Positions 51,841 to 60,532 of a DNA stretch of 64,000 nt are shown one piece after another; within the stretch, counting starts at the first letter, position 1, and each line of letters begins with the position of its first letter. Source of the DNA: a virus (taxonomy: Duplodnaviria; Caudoviricetes). The DNA is taken from positions 64,001 through 128,000 of the IMG/VR virus record IMGVR_UViG_3300028591_000087, one strand, 5' to 3'. The notes beneath the pieces were generated by a model, which saw only the letters and a program-made list of their open reading frames with translations, made no database searches and was not told where the DNA came from. A program made the translations under genes and the position numbers.

Positions 51841-54800
51841 TTGGCGGAAATTAGACTACCCTTGTCTGGGACAAGTACGCATAAAAGTGTAAATCCTTCT
51901 TCTTTAACGTTAAAAACAGATGCTAGTACTTCCGTTGTTTATGACGGAAGTACTGGTAAAACTGTTAATCTATATAGTTTGTCTGTGGCTTCAGCTGACA
52001 AATGGACTAGCACTTGTAATTTAACAATTGGTAATAAAACAATTGCAGTAGATGGCTCTACGGCACAGACTTGGTCTTTGGCTGCTATTGGTGCTTTACC
52101 GGCGGCTGGAGGAAAAGCTACAGGACGTATTTATAGAGAAGGTGCTTCTACCAACTGGAATAAAGGTAGATCAAATGCTTTAGTCGCAACCTCAACAATT
52201 AGTGGTTACTCTCCTTTTGCGTCTATTAAAACTAAAAATGGTTCTTGGGATATCGGTGCTTATGATAATGCTAATTATCAAGATGATTTAATTTTTTCAT
52301 ATGTAACTGATACATTATTTAATGGTTCTAGTTCTAATACAACTGCGCAAATTAGATTCCTTGAAAATGGTCATATTGTTGCTGATTTAGATGGTAATGC
52401 ATCAACAGCTTCAAGCGCAGCCAAGTGGGCAGCCACAAAATCTTTCACTATTGGTAATACTACAAGATCAGTAGATGGTTCTTCAGATGTTTCTTGGACG
52501 GTTGCTGAAATTGGTGCGGCCGCTTCAAGTCATACTCATGGAAACATTACTAATAGTGGCGCTAAATCTGGTACAACTGTTAAATCAACAGATGTTGTAA
52601 CTACTTCACATAAATTTTTACGTGAAGATGGCACATGGCAAGTTCCTATTTATTTAACTATTGGTAGTACCGCAAGTCAAGCTATGGCTGGTAATACTAA
52701 TGTTAATAATGTTGCTATTAGCGCAAATGTAACTACTAATGCTAATTATCCTGTTGTGTTTGCAGTAACTAATACCAGCACAACTTCTGCGAAGAATGAA
52801 GGATTGCAGAAAGCTAGTACGTTATACTTTAATCCTTCTACTGGTACTCTTACTGCTACTAAGTTCTCTGGTAATGTAACAGGTTCATCTGGATCTTGTA
52901 CTGGTAATGCAGCCACAGCGACTAAATTTGCTTCTAGTTAGTCTGTCGCTTTAACAGGTGTTGTAACTGGTTCTGCAAGTTCTCAAGCAGGTTGGTCTAT
53001 TACCACTACTATTGGATCTGGTAAAGTTACTAACGCTATGTTAGAAGGTTCTATTGCTAATGGCAAGTTGGCTAATTCAAGTATGACATTTGGTAGTCAA
53101 CAAATTAGTCTTGGTGGAGAACTTAGTTTACCTACATTACTTACTGACTTAGGTATTACGAGAGTTTTCCAATATTTAGGTTCGACAAAAAATGTACCAT
53201 CTGGATCGACAGTAAATAATATCAATTGTGTATCAGGTGATATGGTTCTTGTTACTGGTAATGCTACTGCTTCTAATGATGGTATTTATGTATATAATGG
53301 CTCCACTTGGGATAAGATTGACTCTTCCAATGGTGCCTATAAAGTTTTACAGACTGGTACAAGCGGAACAGGTTCCACGCTTAAAACTATCACTTCTTGG
53401 AGCCAAAATGAAAATGGTGAAATTACTATTACATATAGTGATATTCAAAGTGGTACAACCAGTCAAAAAGGTTTAGTTCAATTAGCTAGTTCTCATAGTG
53501 CATCTGATTCGACAATGGCTGCGACAGGTGCTACAGTTGCATCAGCTATATCTGCTGCCATTGGCGCATTAGATGGTTCTATTACTGGTTCTGCTGGTTC
53601 TGGTAAGACTTTAACTGCGTTTAGTGAAACAAATGGCGTTGTCAGTGCTACATTTGGTAATATTAGTATTACTAAATCGCAGATTTCTGACTTCCCATCT
53701 ACAATGACTCCTGCAAGTCATACTCATGGCAATATTTCAAATGCTGGTGCAATTACCGCAAATGCTGTTACTATTGCTAATAATGATTTTATAATTGTTG
53801 GAGATGCAAGCGATAGTAGTAAACTTACAAAAGGTCCTGTATTTGATGGTTCAACTGCTACTCAGTGTTTAACTAAAAAAGGTACTTGGGCTAATTTCAA
53901 TAATTATTCATTACCAACTACTACATATAATACACTGGGTGGCGTAAAACCTTGGTACAGTCATACATCTGCTAGCACTGGTCCTACTGCAGGATCTAAT
54001 GCTACTGCAGTCGCTGTTAATACTATTAGTTCTACTGCTGGTAGATATTATGCTGTTGAATCTGATAGCAATGGTAGATTATTTGTAAACGTTCCTTGGT
54101 CCGGCGGTGATACATCTGGATTGTTGCCTAAATCTGGTGGAACAATGACTGGTACATTAACTCTTCGTGGAGTTAAAGGTACCTCCACAATTGACTATGG
54201 TGATGTTCTTCCTGCTGATGGCGCAGAAGGTAGAATTTTCTTCCAGGTCAGTGATGGTGGATCTGATATGCCTCCAGGTGGTACAACAGGTCAAGCGCTC
54301 GTTAAAGCAAGTAATGCTGATGGCGATGTAACTTGGGGCGCTGCGGGTGGTATTTTAAGACCTACTACTACAACTAAATACTATGTTGGTGGATCTGCAT
54401 CTAAAACTGAAAATACAAATCCAATCTTGTTCGATACAGCGATCTATGTTGAAAATAGTGTTCTTCAAGGCGCAGCTTGGAACGACTATGCTGAATATCG
54501 TGCAACTAAAGAAGTAATTGAAGCCGGACGTTGTGTGGTTGAAGTCGGCGATGATACGCTCGAATTATCGACTTCCCGCAGACAACCAGGAGCTGAAATT
54601 GTTTCCGATACATTTGGTTTTGCTATTGGTCAAACTGAAAAATGTAACACTCCTATTGCAGTTACTGGACGTGTTCTTGCGTTCCCTTATGAAGATTTAA
54701 GTCGATTTACTCCTGGTCGACCTGTATGTTCTGGTCCGCAAGGTACAGTAAGTGTAATGAGTGATGAAGAAGCTCGAAACTATCCTTGGTGTATAATTGG

Positions 54801-54885
54801 TACTGTTTCTGGTATTCCGCAAGAAGAATATTGGGGTGCTAATAAAGTATCAACCAAAGGAAGAGTTTGGATTAGAGTGAAGTAA
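51841..54885 (+). CDS. Tail fibre with C-terminal intramolecular-chaperone (peptidase G2-like) domain (1,014 aa)
   Basis: Single TAG at 52939 joins two ORFs; SHTHGNI repeats, LPKSGGTMTG, C-terminal WNDYAEY...VSDTFGF...GRVWIRVK. Confidence 0.75.
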
Positions 54886-54886
54886 T

Positions 54887-55432
54887 ATGCCTAGTTATCA
54901 GTCAAGTCATACAGGAGCTTAGCATGATGATTATGTGACAAAGACTGAACTAGTTAATTTGATTTATCCAATTGGCGCTATTTATATAAGTACAAATAGC
55001 GCCGATCCTTCTTTATTATTTGGTGGCTCTTGGACACAAATTGAGGATACATTTTTACTTGGTGCTGGAAGCACATATACGGCTGGTGGGACTGGTGGAA
55101 GTGCGGATCATACACATACGACTAATGCTGGTACTACTGGTGCGCATACTTTAACAGAATCAGAATTGCCTAAAATTAGTGGTAGTTTAAGATGGCATGG
55201 CCAAGAACATGGTACACATATTTATCATATTGATGGACATTGTACTGGTAATCTTATTAATGGTATGTATCAAACTACAGGACAAACTTCAGGTGCATAT
55301 TCATATGGTGACACCGGATTTGCATTTGGTGGCGATGGTTCTCACACACATCCACAAACATCCGTTGGTACATCTTCATCATCAAATCTCCCGCCATATT
55401 TAGTAGTTTATATTTGGAAGAGGGTGGCATAA
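54887..55432 (+). CDS. MPSY-tag protein with gp10-like/short-fibre C-terminal domain (181 aa)
   Basis: MPSYQSSHTGAQ(TAG)HDD; YPIGAIYIST...GGSWTQI...NLPPYLVVYIWKRVA. Confidence 0.8.
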
Positions 55433-55900
55433 TTGCCTTCATATAATTCACAACATACTGGTTTACAAATTGATAATGGTATTATCGCCGCCAATGCGGC
55501 CTTGTCTAAATCTGAGGCTTCAACTACTTATTTAACATAGGCTAAGGCGGCTTCTACTTATTTAACATAGGCAAATGCTTCTACTACCTATTTAACACAA
55601 ACAAACGCTGCCAGTACATATTTTCCTAAATCAAACGTATTTATCATAACAGATAAAACTGTTGCTATTGCGGACTGGGCATCTGATGCCACCTATACTG
55701 CTTATCCATATAAAGCTATTGTTTCAGATTCTCGTGTCACAGCGAGTACATATTGTGAAGTTGTATTTAATTTGACAGATGCAACTTCTGGTTATTTTGC
55801 CCCAATTTGTAATAGTGTTGCGGGCGGAATTGAGATATGGGCTAGTTCCATCCCTTTGACCGCAATCACTATTCCAACTATTAAGTGTACGATAGGATAA
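55433..55900 (+). CDS. MPSY-tag protein with 10-aa repeats and a beta-rich C-terminal domain (155 aa); absent from the ORF track
   Basis: TTG start; MPSYNSQHTGLQIDNG; TAGs at 55538 and 55568; YPYKA...FAPICNS...IEIWA...AITIPTI; ends at TAA 55898-55900. Confidence 0.8.
55517..55620 (+). repeat. 30-nt tandem repeats (xSTYLTQ units)
   Basis: TATTTAACA-TAG, TATTTAACA-TAG and TATTTAACA-CAA at a 30-nt period. Confidence 0.9.
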
Positions 55901-55913
55901 GGAGTGAATATCA

Positions 55914-56138
55914 ATGGCATCAGGCGGTGTAGCCGTTTGGCATACAACAGATTTTGATTATTATAAGGTTAAACTATATAAAAATGGTTCCTGGAAGGGA
56001 GCTACTCCTTGGGTATACACTGACGGAGAGTGGAGAAAAGTCGGTGGCGCAAATTGCCTGATGATTGAGTGGTATGACAAGAATGGCAATTTGATGGTTG
56101 ATTCTCAAGGAAGAACAATTTTGGTACGTGATAGATAA
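55914..56138 (+). CDS. Small Trp/Tyr-rich virion protein (74 aa)
   Basis: AAGGAG RBS; two YxxGxW units. Confidence 0.65.
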   Translation: MASGGVAVWHTTDFDYYKVKLYKNGSWKGATPWVYTDGEWRKVGGANCLMIEWYDKNGNLMVDSQGRTILVRDR

Positions 56139-56713
56139 TGCCAAGTTATAATTCTACCCATACTGGTATATAGATTGATAATGCCGTTGACACTTACTAG
56201 ACTCAATCTTAGGTTTAGGCTTTAATTAATAGCGCAATTGAAACAGCTGTCGCGCAAACCAAATTAGCTATGTATCCTATTGGGTCTATATATATGTCAT
56301 TGCAGAATACAAATCCTAGCGCATTCATTGGTGGTACTTGGCAATAGATTAAAGATACATTTATACTCGCAGCGGGAGATACTTATACTGCTGGTGATAT
56401 TAGCGGCAAAGCCACACATACACATACAACGATAGAAACTACTACAGGAAGCCATATATTAACAGTTAATGAAATGCCATCTCATAGACATGCTACTTCT
56501 AACTATAATGGTGGCGGTAATAGCGCTGGACATGCAACTACAAATGCATATCCACATGGTGATAGAAATTATTGGAACTATAATAATCCTGGTTATTCTA
56601 GTTATACAGGTGGAGGATAGGGGCATACACATACACAAGTATCTACAACTACTTCAAGCGAATCAAATATGCCTCCTTATCTTGTAGCATATGTTTGGAA
56701 AAGAATAGCATAA
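56138..56713 (+). CDS. MPSY-tag protein with gp10-like domain, paralogue of 54887 (191 aa); absent from the ORF track
   Basis: ATG overlaps the previous TAA; MPSYNSTHTGIQ(TAG)IDNA...YPIGSIYMS...GGTWQQIKDTF...NMPPYLVAYVWKRIA; six TAGs. Confidence 0.85.
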
Positions 56714-56726
56714 AGTTGGTGATGAT

Positions 56727-57059
56727 ATGGTCGGCACCACAAATACAAACACTAAAATTGATTTATCACCTTATGCTTTATCATCTTCAGTTCCTATTAT
56801 AAAACGTGGGTACGTTTAGTTTGGTCAGTCTGGTAGCACAAATATAGGTAGTACAACTTATTATGGTAGTGCAACAGTTTATTATGGATATACATTTCCA
56901 AGCGCACCGACAGTCATTTTAACAGGGAATGATTTATCAAGTGGTGTATTTGGTGCAGAAATTGATGGCGCAGTAACTAATACATATTTCCAATGTACAG
57001 GATATGGCGCAAGTAGTGGTACATATGGTGTATATTGGGTAGCGGTTTGGACGGGATAA
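56727..57059 (+). CDS. MVGTTN-tag protein with H-type lectin/gp53-like domain (110 aa)
   Basis: GGTGA RBS; IKRGYVQ...YGYTFPSAPTVILT...YWVAVW; one TAG; ends in TAA. Confidence 0.7.
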
Positions 57060-57061
57060 GT

Positions 57062-57451
57062 ATGATTGGTACGACTAATATTGAAGCTCGTTTAGCTTAT
57101 GGATGGAAACGTTGGGGTTCAATTAGTTTATCTGGCGGTAATTCTTCTACTCAAAGTATTACAATTACAACTCATGGTCATCCTGTATATTTGAGTTTAA
57201 TGGGTAATAATAATCCTGATAATAATGCTTGGTGTAGAGGTTATATCTATAGAGGATCTACTGAGTTATGTTATGTAACTTGTCACGATCCAGGAGCATC
57301 TACAAATCGTCCATTTTGTTGTTAGTATTTAGATATTATAGAAGCTGGAACTTATACATATAATTTTAAAATATAGACACATTCTGGGACTATTAGTTAT
57401 TCTGAGAACGGTGCAAATGAAAGTCCTTCTTGTGTTTGTTTTGAGATTTGA
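57062..57451 (+). CDS. MIGTTN-tag protein with Cys-containing beta-sandwich domain (129 aa)
   Basis: Reads through two TAGs to TGA 57449-57451; ITITTHGHPVYL...AGTYTYNFK. Confidence 0.7.
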
Positions 57452-57460
57452 GGGATGCAT

Positions 57461-58018
57461 ATGGTTGGAATAACGTCAGCAGTAGAAACATATCGTAATT
57501 TTAATATAGGTACTGAACCAATCTATATGCATAAAGATAATAATACTTATGTCCAAGTATATTACCATGATACTGGAGCTGGTTATTGGACAAAAAGTCT
57601 TTCAAGTATATTATATTCTACTGATTCGCGCAAATATTCATTATTTAGTAAATTAGATTAGTTAACTTATCAACCAAGCATATATCAATTTATTTTAGAG
57701 TATCCTGGATATAGTAGCACATCATATAATGAATGGTCTCAAACATCAAATCCTACAATGTATGACAATGCTGTTACTGGTTATACTCCAATTCATATTG
57801 ATTGGAATGGGTCAAGTTCTTCTGTTTATTTTAATGGTTTAAGTTTTATGCCAAGTCATTCATCTTGTTATTGTAAAAGTTATTGTGGCACATCAAGTAA
57901 CTGGTGGTTTGCTTTATTTTCTTATAGTTCTTATGAAGGCGGAGTACCTGGCCCAGAATGGGGCTCAAGCTCATATAAAATAGTTACTAAAATACGTTTA
58001 TGGTTGCGGGTGAAGTAA
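57461..58018 (+). CDS. MVGITS-tag protein with fibrinogen-C-like domain (185 aa)
   Basis: Two track ORFs joined at TAG 57659; KYSLFSKL...YQFILEYP...NEWSQTSNP...GYTPIHIDW...FNGL...WWFA...LWLR. Confidence 0.7.
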
Positions 58019-58019
58019 T

Positions 58020-58727
58020 ATGATAGGAACAACAAGTAGTATTAATCATATTATTTAGCAAGATGTAAATAATTATGATCATTTGGTTATATGGCTGGAT
58101 GGCACCGATTTTATGAATCATGGAAATGATTAGAGTTATACAATTTCTAATGGTAATAATTTTAATCAATTGGTTATGTAGACTATTAAAAATAAATCTG
58201 TTTCTACATATTATAAAAGAAGTGCTGCTGCTCGTGCAAATAGTATAATAATTACTCCAACCGCATTACATAATTATAGTTCAATTACAATGATGGCTTG
58301 GTGCGCTCGTTGCGATAATACTGACCATAATAATTTATTTACTTGTGGAGATGCAAGTAGTGGTTTTTTTGAAGCACGTTTTAGATTGACTGGAACTAAT
58401 GCAGTTGGTTATTTATGGGCATCTGGTTCATCTTATGACTATCATAGTGTAGCTGTAGGACAACAAATAAATGAATGGGGTCATATGGCTTTTATTAGAA
58501 ATGGATCATCAATAAAATGTTATTATAATGGAATTGTTGTTGACCAAGTAACTGCTTCAACAACTAGAAATTCTATTTCGATTTTTCATTTATTAGGTGA
58601 TACCTGTTGGACATCTGACACTGGTGGAGCAAGTTATTGTACAGATTATAGATATTATGATATAGCATTAAGCGATGCGGATATTTTAGAAATATACAAT
58701 GCTGGTCCGCAATAGCATAGAAGTTAA
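58020..58727 (+). CDS. MIGTTS-tag protein with LamG/ConA-like domain (235 aa)
   Basis: LVIWLDG...ITMMAW...NEWGHMAFIRNGSSIKCYYNG...DYRYYDIALSDADI; four TAGs; ends at TAA 58725-58727. Confidence 0.8.
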
Positions 58728-58741
58728 ATTGTGGTGATATA

Positions 58742-59119
58742 ATGATTGGGACTACATCAATTACACCAAATATGTATCCTTTTTTCCAATTTTCTACTGA
58801 TGAATAGAAAACACCATTTAAATGGATTGATGGGAAAGATTTATATTGTAAAATATTAAAAATGACTACTGGATATTCAGAAGGAACTGCTTATACTGTT
58901 GCTACAAATGTAGATTAGCCTGTTTTAATTTAGTTTATTGTTAGTACCACTTCTGAAAGTCCATATGTATGGACAATTGGTAATTATTATTGCTCTGGAG
59001 GAGATAGAAATTATTCTTACTGTCGTTTAAATAATGGAACATTAACATTTATGCATCGTAGCGGTAGTAGCTATGCTTATGGCAGGACATGGGTAATCTG
59101 TTTTTATACTAAAAAATAA
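58742..59119 (+). CDS. MIGTTS-tag protein with fibre-tip 'WIDGK...YTK' domain (125 aa); absent from the ORF track
   Basis: GGTGA RBS; FSTDEQ(TAG)KTPFKWIDGKDLYCK...FYTKK; three TAGs; ends in TAA. Confidence 0.75.
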
Positions 59120-59131
59120 GTAGGTGATAAA

Positions 59132-60532
59132 ATGAAAGTCACCGTTAAATTAAGTCTACAATCAAATATAGATCATTATGGTACATCAATTGTAGAACTT
59201 GATATAGAAGAATATGTTAAAGGCGTAGTGCCTGCGGAAATAGGTAATGCGCGTATAGAAGCCTGTAAAGCTCAGGCAGTGGCTTCCCGCACTTTTGCTT
59301 TTATAAAAGCTAGCAAGGGAAAGCAATTGACCGATCAAAGTAGTAAAGACCAAGCCTTTAAAGCAGTTCGTATTTCCTCTTCATATCCTAATGCAATGCA
59401 AGCTGTGGAAGAAACAGCGGGGCAAGTCTTATATTACAACGGTCAATTAATAACAACAAGTTCATATTCAAACGCGAATGGTGGACGCGTTAAATCCGCC
59501 AAAGAAGTCTGGGGTAGTGATCGTCCTTGGTTGATCTCTAAACCAGACCCATATAATGGAACTAAAACCGGTGGGCATGGCGTTGGTATGTCACAGACTG
59601 GCGCAAAAAACATGGCTGCGCAAGGTTTTTCATATAAAGATATTCTCGCTTTCTATTATGTAGGAACTGAGATACGCAATAACTATGGAGAGGAGAGAGT
59701 TATGACAAAAGCAGAAAAAGTTGCTAGTTGGGCTCGTTCAAAAGTAGGTTGCGGTTATGTTTATGGTGCTACTGGTCAAAAGGCTACTGAATCAAGCGTT
59801 CAAGCATTAATCAAATCATATGGTACATCAAATATAGATTATTCAATTGTGAAGAAATGGATTGACAAGGGTGTACAAGTATATGACTGTGCGGGGCTCG
59901 TCTCAGAAGCTATAAGTGCCGGCGGTCTACCAGGTATGTCCACTGGCGCCACGTCTCAGTGGAATAAAACTACTTGGCTCAAACGTGGTACTATTGATAC
60001 TTTACCTAAGGATAAAGTGTGCTGCCTTTATCGTTAGGTTTAGGCTAATCCGGTAAAAATGCAACATACCGGCATATATCTTGGTGATGGAACATTTATC
60101 GATTCAAGAGATAGCACCAGAGGCGTCATTGGTCCTAACAAGTTATCTTCGTATAAATGGACTCACTGGGGCATTCCGAAGGGGTTATATTCGGAAAGTG
60201 ATATTGATATTCCTGAGGTGATTAAAGTGGCTTATCAAGCTAAGGTAACAGCTTCTTCTGGTTCTACTGTTAATATGCGCAAGACTCCTTCTTCTAATGG
60301 TGCATTGATCTCTAAGATTGGTATAGGACAAATTATTGATGTGACAAGTGTTAGCGGTGATTGGTCCGCGATCACTTGGAATGGCAAGTCTGGTTATATG
60401 ATGTCTAAGTTCTTGCAAAAGGTTGAGGGTTCGGAAAATAATAAGGTATGGTATGTCCGCCTCGAGTGCGACAGCGAAGAGCAAGCAAAGGCAATCGCGC
60501 AAATCCTCGCGAAAGCGAAAGCAACCACTTGA
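59132..60532 (+). CDS. Endolysin: SpoIID/LytB + NlpC/P60 + SH3b (466 aa)
   Basis: EEYVKGVVPAE, KAQAVASRT, GHGVGMSQ (SpoIID); GYVYGA, YDCAGLV, QHTGIY, WTHWG (NlpC/P60); VNMRKTPS, GYMMSKFL (SH3b); joined via TAGs at 60035 and 60041. Confidence 0.9.

Follow-up and report, generated by a model that had tools for sequence, protein, structure and literature searches.

Six shared residues on otherwise unrelated small genes: a candidate docking peptide for interchangeable receptor-binding heads in a TAG-recoded phage

What keeps the same six residues at the start of five adjacent phage genes whose products resemble one another nowhere else? The question is posed by positions 56727–59119 of a 64,000-nucleotide stretch (hereafter the window), which is made up of bases 64001–128000 of a single virus contig of 193,102 bp (IMG/VR record IMGVR_UViG_3300028591_000087; GC content of the whole contig 38%) that CheckV rates as complete. 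The region carries an array of five small genes, each opening with a hexapeptide “tag” (e.g., MIGTTS), which an earlier reading of the DNA, made without database searches (hereafter the sequence-only reading), had taken for a candidate plug-in receptor-binding system. In the reading that we favor, and to which we assign about even chances, the hexapeptide would be a shared docking peptide for interchangeable heads on the phage tail. It is favored because the tag is specific to gene starts, is selected as a peptide and sits on changing bodies, because the recognizable heads are of binding types and the array is encoded at a tail-fibre location, and because there is precedent for such an arrangement.

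The array lies on the plus strand and comprises gene 1 (56727–57059; 110 amino acids (aa), starting MVGTTN), gene 2 (57062–57451; 129 aa, MIGTTN, with seven cysteines), gene 3 (57461–58018; 185 aa, MVGITS, with a further ATG two codons upstream at 57455), gene 4 (58020–58727; 235 aa, MIGTTS, with a LamG domain at residues 78–222) and gene 5 (58742–59119; 125 aa, MIGTTS, with an N-terminal tail of residues 1–21 followed by a WIDGK...YTK beta-sandwich head). A Shine–Dalgarno (SD)-like purine run is found 5–12 nt upstream of all five starts, and in genes 4 and 5 no other start is possible between the preceding stop and the ATG of the tag. The genes contain 1, 2, 1, 4 and 3 TAG codons, respectively, and the starts and hexapeptides that the sequence-only reading had assigned to them are exact once TAG is read as glutamine. 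Indeed, the long open reading frames (ORFs) of this phage emerge only if TAG is a sense codon. Its reading as glutamine is supported by several lines of evidence: two of the 71 tRNA genes on the contig have the anticodon CTA; TAG stands opposite CAA or CAG in aligned orthologues; TAG and CAA alternate at the glutamine position within the tag; and the conserved glutamine of an EQKT motif in gene 5 is TAG here and Q in standard-code homologues. Read with code 11, the five genes break into fragments, as had been anticipated, and the public gene calls at the array on the same contig are pieces of 87 and 141 aa. The ratio of nonsynonymous to synonymous substitution rates between close orthologues of the tagged genes is 0.06–0.25 (0.06 for gene 1 versus its counterpart in the relative L005), and they are therefore real genes. 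TAG is far denser in small accessory genes (e.g., 6 of 191 codons in the gene at 56138; 4 of 235 in that at 58020) than in a 1014-aa fibre gene (one), and some relatives have it within the tag, as codon 2 or codon 4.

The tag is specific to these gene starts. The relaxed pattern M-[IVL]-G-[TIVS]-T-[NST], searched in six frames across the 193,102 bp, hits five sites only, namely the starts of the five genes, and a looser one (M-x-G-[TIQ]-[TV]-[NST] heading an ORF of 60 aa or more) recovers from the whole genome only the five array genes and one gene of a second locus. Beyond the tag the five genes have nothing in common, just as the sequence-only reading held: an all-versus-all BLAST of their bodies gave no mutual match below E = 0.4. 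The second locus is on the minus strand at genome positions 167404–168441 (window-equivalent 103404–104441, outside the window) and holds a 218-aa gene, in which a GTG start is followed by IGQVN with its glutamine written TAG, and a 123-aa gene starting MLGQTN. Two genes come immediately before this pair, one for a 231-aa NlpC/P60-SH3-like protein and one for a 366-aa beta-helix fibre-like protein; three genes upstream in the same locus have DIDAITG-type motifs in common.

Is the tag kept when the genes change? Relatives were collected through protein look-ups with a gene 3 homologue (73%), the 74-aa protein encoded a little upstream of the array (identical on eight contigs) and homologues of a neighboring 155-aa protein with an MPSY start. 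Tagged arrays in related phages, which the sequence-only reading had suggested looking for, were found on the contigs L005–L010, L015 and L020, and they differ in size and bodies. The arrays of L009 and L010 equal that of the window; L005 has genes 1, 3 and 4 and lacks gene 2; in L006 the tagged genes number seven, of which two seem to be frameshifted; the five in L007 and L008 include none that is homologous to those of the window; and L015 and L020, whose 155-aa protein is 52–54% identical to the window’s, have two each. Array size accordingly runs from two to seven tagged genes across L005, L006, L007/L008, L015 and L020, and gene 2 orthologues occur in L006 and L015. The two irregular genes (L006:11829 and L006:13704) reach a stop after 20 codons and go on in another frame, and are either pseudogenes or assembly errors. 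Among the relatives’ tag starts are MIGQTN, MIGQVN, MQGTTT, MQGITS, MKGQTN, MIGQTT, MIGETN and MLGITI, which give the consensus M-x-G-[TIQE]-[TV]-[NST], and BLAST resolves the bodies from the window genome and L005–L008 into 14 unrelated families. The comparison of these predicted genes thus shows a tag kept across diverged relatives on 14 unrelated bodies, in arrays that differ by whole cassettes. Elsewhere, an endolysin search of IMG/VR returned distant relatives only (endolysin 51–56% identical), all without the array; a gene 4 search, and a gene 2 alignment run against viral and metagenome contigs, found no further arrays in IMG/VR and the JGI metagenomes; DNA patterns for the MPSY tag and for the junction of collar-gene end and tag start gave chance matches only; and a tblastn of the fibre protein and gene 5 against cultured phages gave no match.

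What, then, is being conserved at the start of these genes, the peptide or the DNA? Across 17 tag starts from the window genome and the relatives, the ATG and the first two G of the glycine codon are invariant, while the third position of that codon carries about 0.3 bit, all four glycine codons being used among the five window genes. The threonine, serine and glutamine codons of the tag vary likewise, with third positions of about 0.3–0.5 bit. Because the codons of the tag differ in this way (four for glycine; CAA and TAG for glutamine), the alignments show selection to act on the tag peptide rather than on the DNA. This bears on two alternatives. One is that the shared start reflects a translation-initiation preference, akin to a downstream box. 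The tag does occupy codons 2–6 of tightly packed and probably coupled genes, but it is the amino acids and not the codons that are conserved, and the tag is absent from all of the other approximately 220 ORFs called in the genome; we regard this as the least probable of the explanations, with next to no weight.

The other alternative is that the conserved 5′ end, i.e., the ribosome-binding site (RBS) and first codons, is mainly a recombination joint for cassettes and that the peptide is of little function. Traces of exchange are indeed present. Gene 1 of L005 leads at its end straight into gene 3, the identity to the gene 2 start reaching through ATGATTGG of the tag and that to the gene 3 start beginning in the SD region; the gene 2 indel is therefore bounded by tags, with its junction inside the RBS plus ATGATTGG. 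Likewise, the last ~23 residues of gene 3 (...RLWLRVK; 57950–58022) resemble the C-terminus of the 1014-aa fibre (...RVWIRVK; 54815–54889), and the same GTGAAGTAATATG stop–start junction follows each of the two genes, a likeness that looks like the footprint of recombination at gene boundaries. From the L005 junction and these matching ends it follows that cassettes are exchanged at gene boundaries. However, DNA identity among the tags is low, as seen from the four glycine codons and the third positions; no DNA repeat of at least 16 nt was detected at the tags; and the tag amino acids are kept even where the conserved neighboring protein is only 52–54% identical. The tag region offers microhomology only, so that a role at the DNA level alone is unlikely, and we consider the recombination joint an improbable account of the tag as a whole. 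No meaningful inverted repeats flank the array, and a search of the whole genome for reverse transcriptases and serine or tyrosine recombinases (RVT_1, Resolvase and Phage_integrase) gave no match, which extends to the complete contig the earlier statement that neither a diversity-generating retroelement (DGR) nor an invertase is seen. If the tag is a docking peptide, host recognition could be diversified through gain and loss of cassettes without either device.

The nature of the bodies is the next question. Gene 4 has a Laminin_G_3 domain (PF13385; residues 78–222, E = 4.6e-11, bit score 43.5, curated cut-off 27.6), in agreement with the LamG domain proposed for it. No Pfam model covers the large family of gene 5, for which we found 80 representative homologues at E < 1e-3; they occur as free proteins of 108–130 aa, as the C-terminal domain of proteins of 398–602 aa and as tandem copies in giant proteins. 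In 42 sequences of the family W28, K32, Y35 and Y122-T123-K124 are invariant. The AlphaFold2 model of gene 5 (mean predicted local distance difference test, pLDDT, 90.2) is a nine-strand beta-sandwich from residue 22 onward; BFVD has matches for it among predicted tail-fibre and collagen-fibre proteins of phages (E = 7.6e-6 to 6e-4), and VIA matches it with middling Z scores to the pyocin R1 and R2 fibre foot (6.7 and 6.3) as well as to the AP22 gp53 fibre, whereas Foldseek against the PDB gave no match at E ≤ 0.001. The “WIDGK...YTK” fibre-tip domain recognized by the sequence-only reading therefore corresponds, by its homologues, invariant motifs and BFVD matches, to a widespread family of fibre heads.

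The other three bodies are harder to place. Gene 1 has a weak match (E = 0.0097) to PHROG 2557, annotated as a virion structural protein, and the sole match bearing on the H-type lectin/gp53-like domain suggested for it is a weak one to L007:12312, a Gp53-like_C protein (34% identity over 82 aa, E = 0.16). For gene 2, described earlier as a cysteine-containing beta-sandwich, the cysteines stand and number seven, and the beta-sandwich is a putative fold: neither Pfam nor the PDB gave a match, and the Atlas returned unnamed viral clusters only. A fibrinogen-C-like domain in gene 3 finds no support, since the gene has no Pfam match at E values up to 1, the AlphaFold2 model of its homologue P0001, built with three sequences, is unusable (pLDDT 41.6), and P0001 retrieves from the Atlas unnamed viral clusters and a sub-threshold lead (0.89) to a cluster with 23% Fibrinogen_C members. 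In sequence searches of the PDB, neither the products of genes 1, 2, 3 and 5 nor three proteins encoded upstream had a match below E = 0.02. Among the relatives’ tagged bodies, one is a Gp53-like_C domain (E = 2.6e-8), two show sub-threshold F5/8-type-C (discoidin) matches and one a sub-threshold H_lectin match. The recognizable bodies (LamG, Gp53-like_C and the gene 5 fibre head) are hence of binding type, with no depolymerase domain among them, and the view that these are heads without a fibre shaft holds, the identifiable ones being carbohydrate-binding or fibre-tip types.

Such diversity also speaks to the possibility that the tagged proteins all descend from one fold as paralogues that have diverged far, the N-terminus being its best-kept strand. 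Two marginal similarities would fit this, namely gene 1 to L007:12312 (E = 0.16) and gene 4 to the 218-aa protein of the second locus (E = 0.012), but the bodies match different Pfam families (LamG, Gp53-like_C, discoidin and H_lectin), range in length from 102 to 235 aa and, in the case of gene 5, have the tag outside the fold and missing from homologues of the domain elsewhere, making a common fold very improbable. In the gene 5 model residues 1–21 form a coil outside the beta-sandwich (pLDDT 67 over the first ten), and in standard-code homologues the domain begins at the same FST/YST...EQKT motif behind other N-termini that lack the tag. As far as the gene 5 prediction and its alignments go, this shows the tag to be a modular unit outside the fold. 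A subgroup of the free-standing gene 5 homologues in standard-code phages has a different leader in common, M-[WF]-Q-[KQ]-x-x-Q-x-x-GG, with a glycine-rich linker behind it (P0009, P0012, P0020, P0023, P0072 and P0075, and a tandem pair at L013:228–999). In this domain family, small free heads that carry a leader specific to their lineage thus seem to be more widespread, the hexapeptide being the leader of the present lineage, and the recurrence suggests that leader-plus-head is a general design.

Where the array is encoded offers a further clue. It follows a long block of giant structural genes and is flanked by tail-fibre genes on one side and the endolysin on the other. Upstream, the variable region has as its conserved border the 1014-aa tail fibre (51841–54885, plus strand like the other genes of this region), which has a weak Phage_fiber_2 match; its C-terminal segment, conserved in the L002 and L020 fibres, has no Pfam match and is one that we take to resemble an auto-cleaving chaperone. 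Between the fibre and the array are encoded, in order, a 181-aa collar protein with an MPSY tag (54887–55432; Pfam Gp10_C, E = 7.8e-18), the 155-aa MPSY-tagged mini-fibre (55433–55900; TTG start, three to four ten-residue repeats and a conserved C-terminal domain), the 74-aa protein (55914–56138), 100% identical on the eight contigs despite their different arrays, and, directly upstream of gene 1, a second MPSY-tagged collar protein of 191 aa (56138–56713; Gp10_C, E = 3.8e-18). The 74-aa protein, diverged homologues of which (72–100 aa) adjoin collar genes in L012, L018 and L020, may be a chaperone or adaptor. The MPSY tag of the genes at 54887, 55433 and 56138 represents one version of a more general N-terminal motif, M..Y.S.[HY]TG.Q.D, which is seen in 155-aa homologues from other phages (P0084–P0094), e.g., as MANYNSSYTG and MSVYNSSHTG.

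Downstream, the array is bordered by a conserved endolysin gene (59132–60532) with SpoIID, NlpC/P60 and SH3 domains, an architecture that leads us to infer a host that is probably Gram-positive. This neighbor invites the alternative that the tagged proteins are detachable cell-wall-binding subunits docked on NlpC/P60 lysins, in the manner of a PlyC-like multi-subunit lysin. Both tag loci adjoin an NlpC/P60-SH3 gene, the main array ending at the endolysin and the second pair overlapping the stop of the 231-aa NlpC/P60-SH3-like gene. Against it, both lysins already have an SH3 binding domain of their own, the gene 5 fold and Gp53-like_C are fibre-tip domains, and endolysin genes usually lie behind fibre genes, such that the adjacency is expected in any case; we hold a lysin-subunit role to be quite improbable.

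Under the docking reading, each array gene would encode the six-residue tag, a short linker and an unrelated, shaftless binding head. The tag would act as a common assembly or docking peptide by which the heads are mounted non-covalently at one conserved tail or baseplate-fibre site, and heads could be gained, lost or swapped as gene cassettes with the scaffold left unaltered. If there is docking, the socket has, in our estimate, about one chance in three of being an upstream protein of the collar (Gp10_C) type. The sequence-only reading had pointed above all to the 155-aa product encoded at 55433, which would be another candidate. A collar protein is a candidate because a collar gene is followed at once by a tag gene in the window as well as in L005 and L006, and at two places in L015, where stop and start overlap, and because the gene 5 head is C-terminal to a Phage Tail Collar domain within one chain in two of ten long homologues. 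A complex prediction for the 191-aa collar protein (P0109, alignment of 3 rows) with gene 5 (P0004, 42 rows) scored 0.00, a “no answer” that counts neither way, and the upstream baseplate proteins had no Pfam or PDB sequence match. A bolder form of the docking reading, which we consider unlikely, would let the hexapeptide fit every head to a single tolerant socket on collar-type stub fibres, for which the five to seven different lectin heads of one infection compete; each virion would then be a random mixture and each burst combinatorial at the protein level, with cassettes exchanged at the tag.

Several points weigh against docking. That the tagged proteins are virion components and that the tag binds a socket is something we infer from the genes, and the docking partner is a candidate only. 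With its six residues the tag is shorter than every docking peptide that has been tested; M1 and G3 are its sole invariant residues, and L020 has MLGITI and MNGNCN. Given so loose a tag the socket would need to be tolerant, or else the tag may be degenerating in L020. The second tag pair adjoins an NlpC/P60-SH3 lysin gene away from the main tail module. The collar, 74-aa and 155-aa proteins have homologues in L018 too, which is without tag arrays, and these three are therefore not tied to the tag. Finally, the sampled lineage is narrow, no tagged array having turned up in IMG/VR or the JGI metagenomes to add to those of the Logan and ENA relatives.

The tag could instead be an address label for some other purpose, serving either to package or target the proteins or to let a chaperone or modifying enzyme take hold of them; neither would make it a structural docking strand of the tail. 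The internal proteins of phage T4 offer the model. Their capsid-targeting sequence directs them into the prohead and is then cleaved, and their bodies are injected anti-defence proteins; as in the array, a short N-terminus is all that is common to polymorphic small genes with unrelated bodies. That no socket was found also fits, and the conserved 74-aa protein beside the array could be the reader of the tag. Conversely, lectin and fibre-head bodies act outside the particle, and the tags are followed by no common protease-type (Glu-ending) site. Unlike the T4 locus, which is not among fibre genes, the array with its lectin-like bodies is located between fibres and lysin, away from the head genes. 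We therefore give an alternative address label a small chance.

Two further features of these genomes may be recorded. Genome positions 1–20 kb and 172–192 kb are diverged copies of one block near the contig ends, each with a large tRNA array, one tRNA-CTA and homologous genes that include a secreted-type protein (942 aa in one, 914 aa in the other); they are either truly duplicated or stem from two strain variants that were joined. In the fibre module of L015 (L015:2471–6217), two long ORFs of 473 and 457 aa have cysteine-rich CxxxCxxC-type motifs and look like radical-SAM enzymes; they come after two small genes with a common MAVS.G.KV start.

Short docking peptides on secondary receptor-binding proteins (RBPs) are an established principle, known and tested before, and, as far as our searches go, the tagged array is undescribed for this phage group. 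What is new here is the extremely short and loose address, the many single-domain lectin-like heads, in place of tailspikes, as its cargo, the second, MPSY-type tag on the upstream collar proteins, and the invisibility of the whole set to standard-code annotation. If the docking reading is right, this would be the most extreme plug-in receptor binding so far, with a six-residue address of two invariant positions that is borne by single-domain lectins of an uncultured phage; it would also provide a simple sequence rule to locate hidden receptor-binding genes in TAG-recoded phages and, for laboratory work with phages, a minimal tag by which foreign binding domains could be attached to virions.

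How does such an array compare with known systems? Detachable small receptor-binding heads are familiar from gp38 on the gp37 tip of phages T2 and S16 and from BppL on BppU of the lactococcal phage TP901-1. There too the small head gene stands just after a fibre or baseplate gene and the head is held non-covalently by its N-terminus; in those phages, however, attachment is through folded domains or stems of at least 20 residues, with one head type per phage, whereas here an array shares a hexapeptide. The jumbo and myo-phages of Klebsiella (the Menlow group and PhiK64-1/RaK2; PMC6872550) likewise encode many RBPs per large phage, several with a conserved N-terminal segment, but these segments span ~55–260 aligned residues of proteins of 580–1600 aa, as opposed to a hexapeptide on single-domain proteins. 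The closest parallel is provided by the branched RBPs of Klebsiella phages KP32, KP34 and K11, Escherichia coli phages K1-5 and K1E and Salmonella phage SP6. In KP34-like phages, K1-5, K1E and SP6, secondary RBPs have been modelled onto a T4gp10-like branching domain via a conserved N-terminal peptide of 7–11 residues (Latka 2019, PMC6872550), and in KP32 deletion of the docking peptide abolished incorporation, while its graft onto a foreign enzyme allowed it (Latka 2026, PMC13352976). Those systems differ from the array in having one or two large trimeric depolymerase tailspikes per phage, as against five to seven non-enzymatic heads of 102–235 aa, and in a socket formed by domain 2/3 of the T4gp10-like protein, the adjacent collar genes here, our candidate socket, matching Gp10_C, which stands for the C-terminal gp10 domain rather than for domains 2/3. 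The array is further set apart by its six-residue tag with M and G alone invariant, its probably Gram-positive host and its TAG-recoded genes. There are likenesses as well: in both, a short N-terminal peptide is common to otherwise unrelated genes (here five genes of the window, two more of the second locus and, with the relatives included, 14 body families); in both, the genes occupy a variable stretch between conserved structural and lysis genes; and the docking peptide of the branched RBPs is a modular, transferable plug, as is proposed for the tag here.

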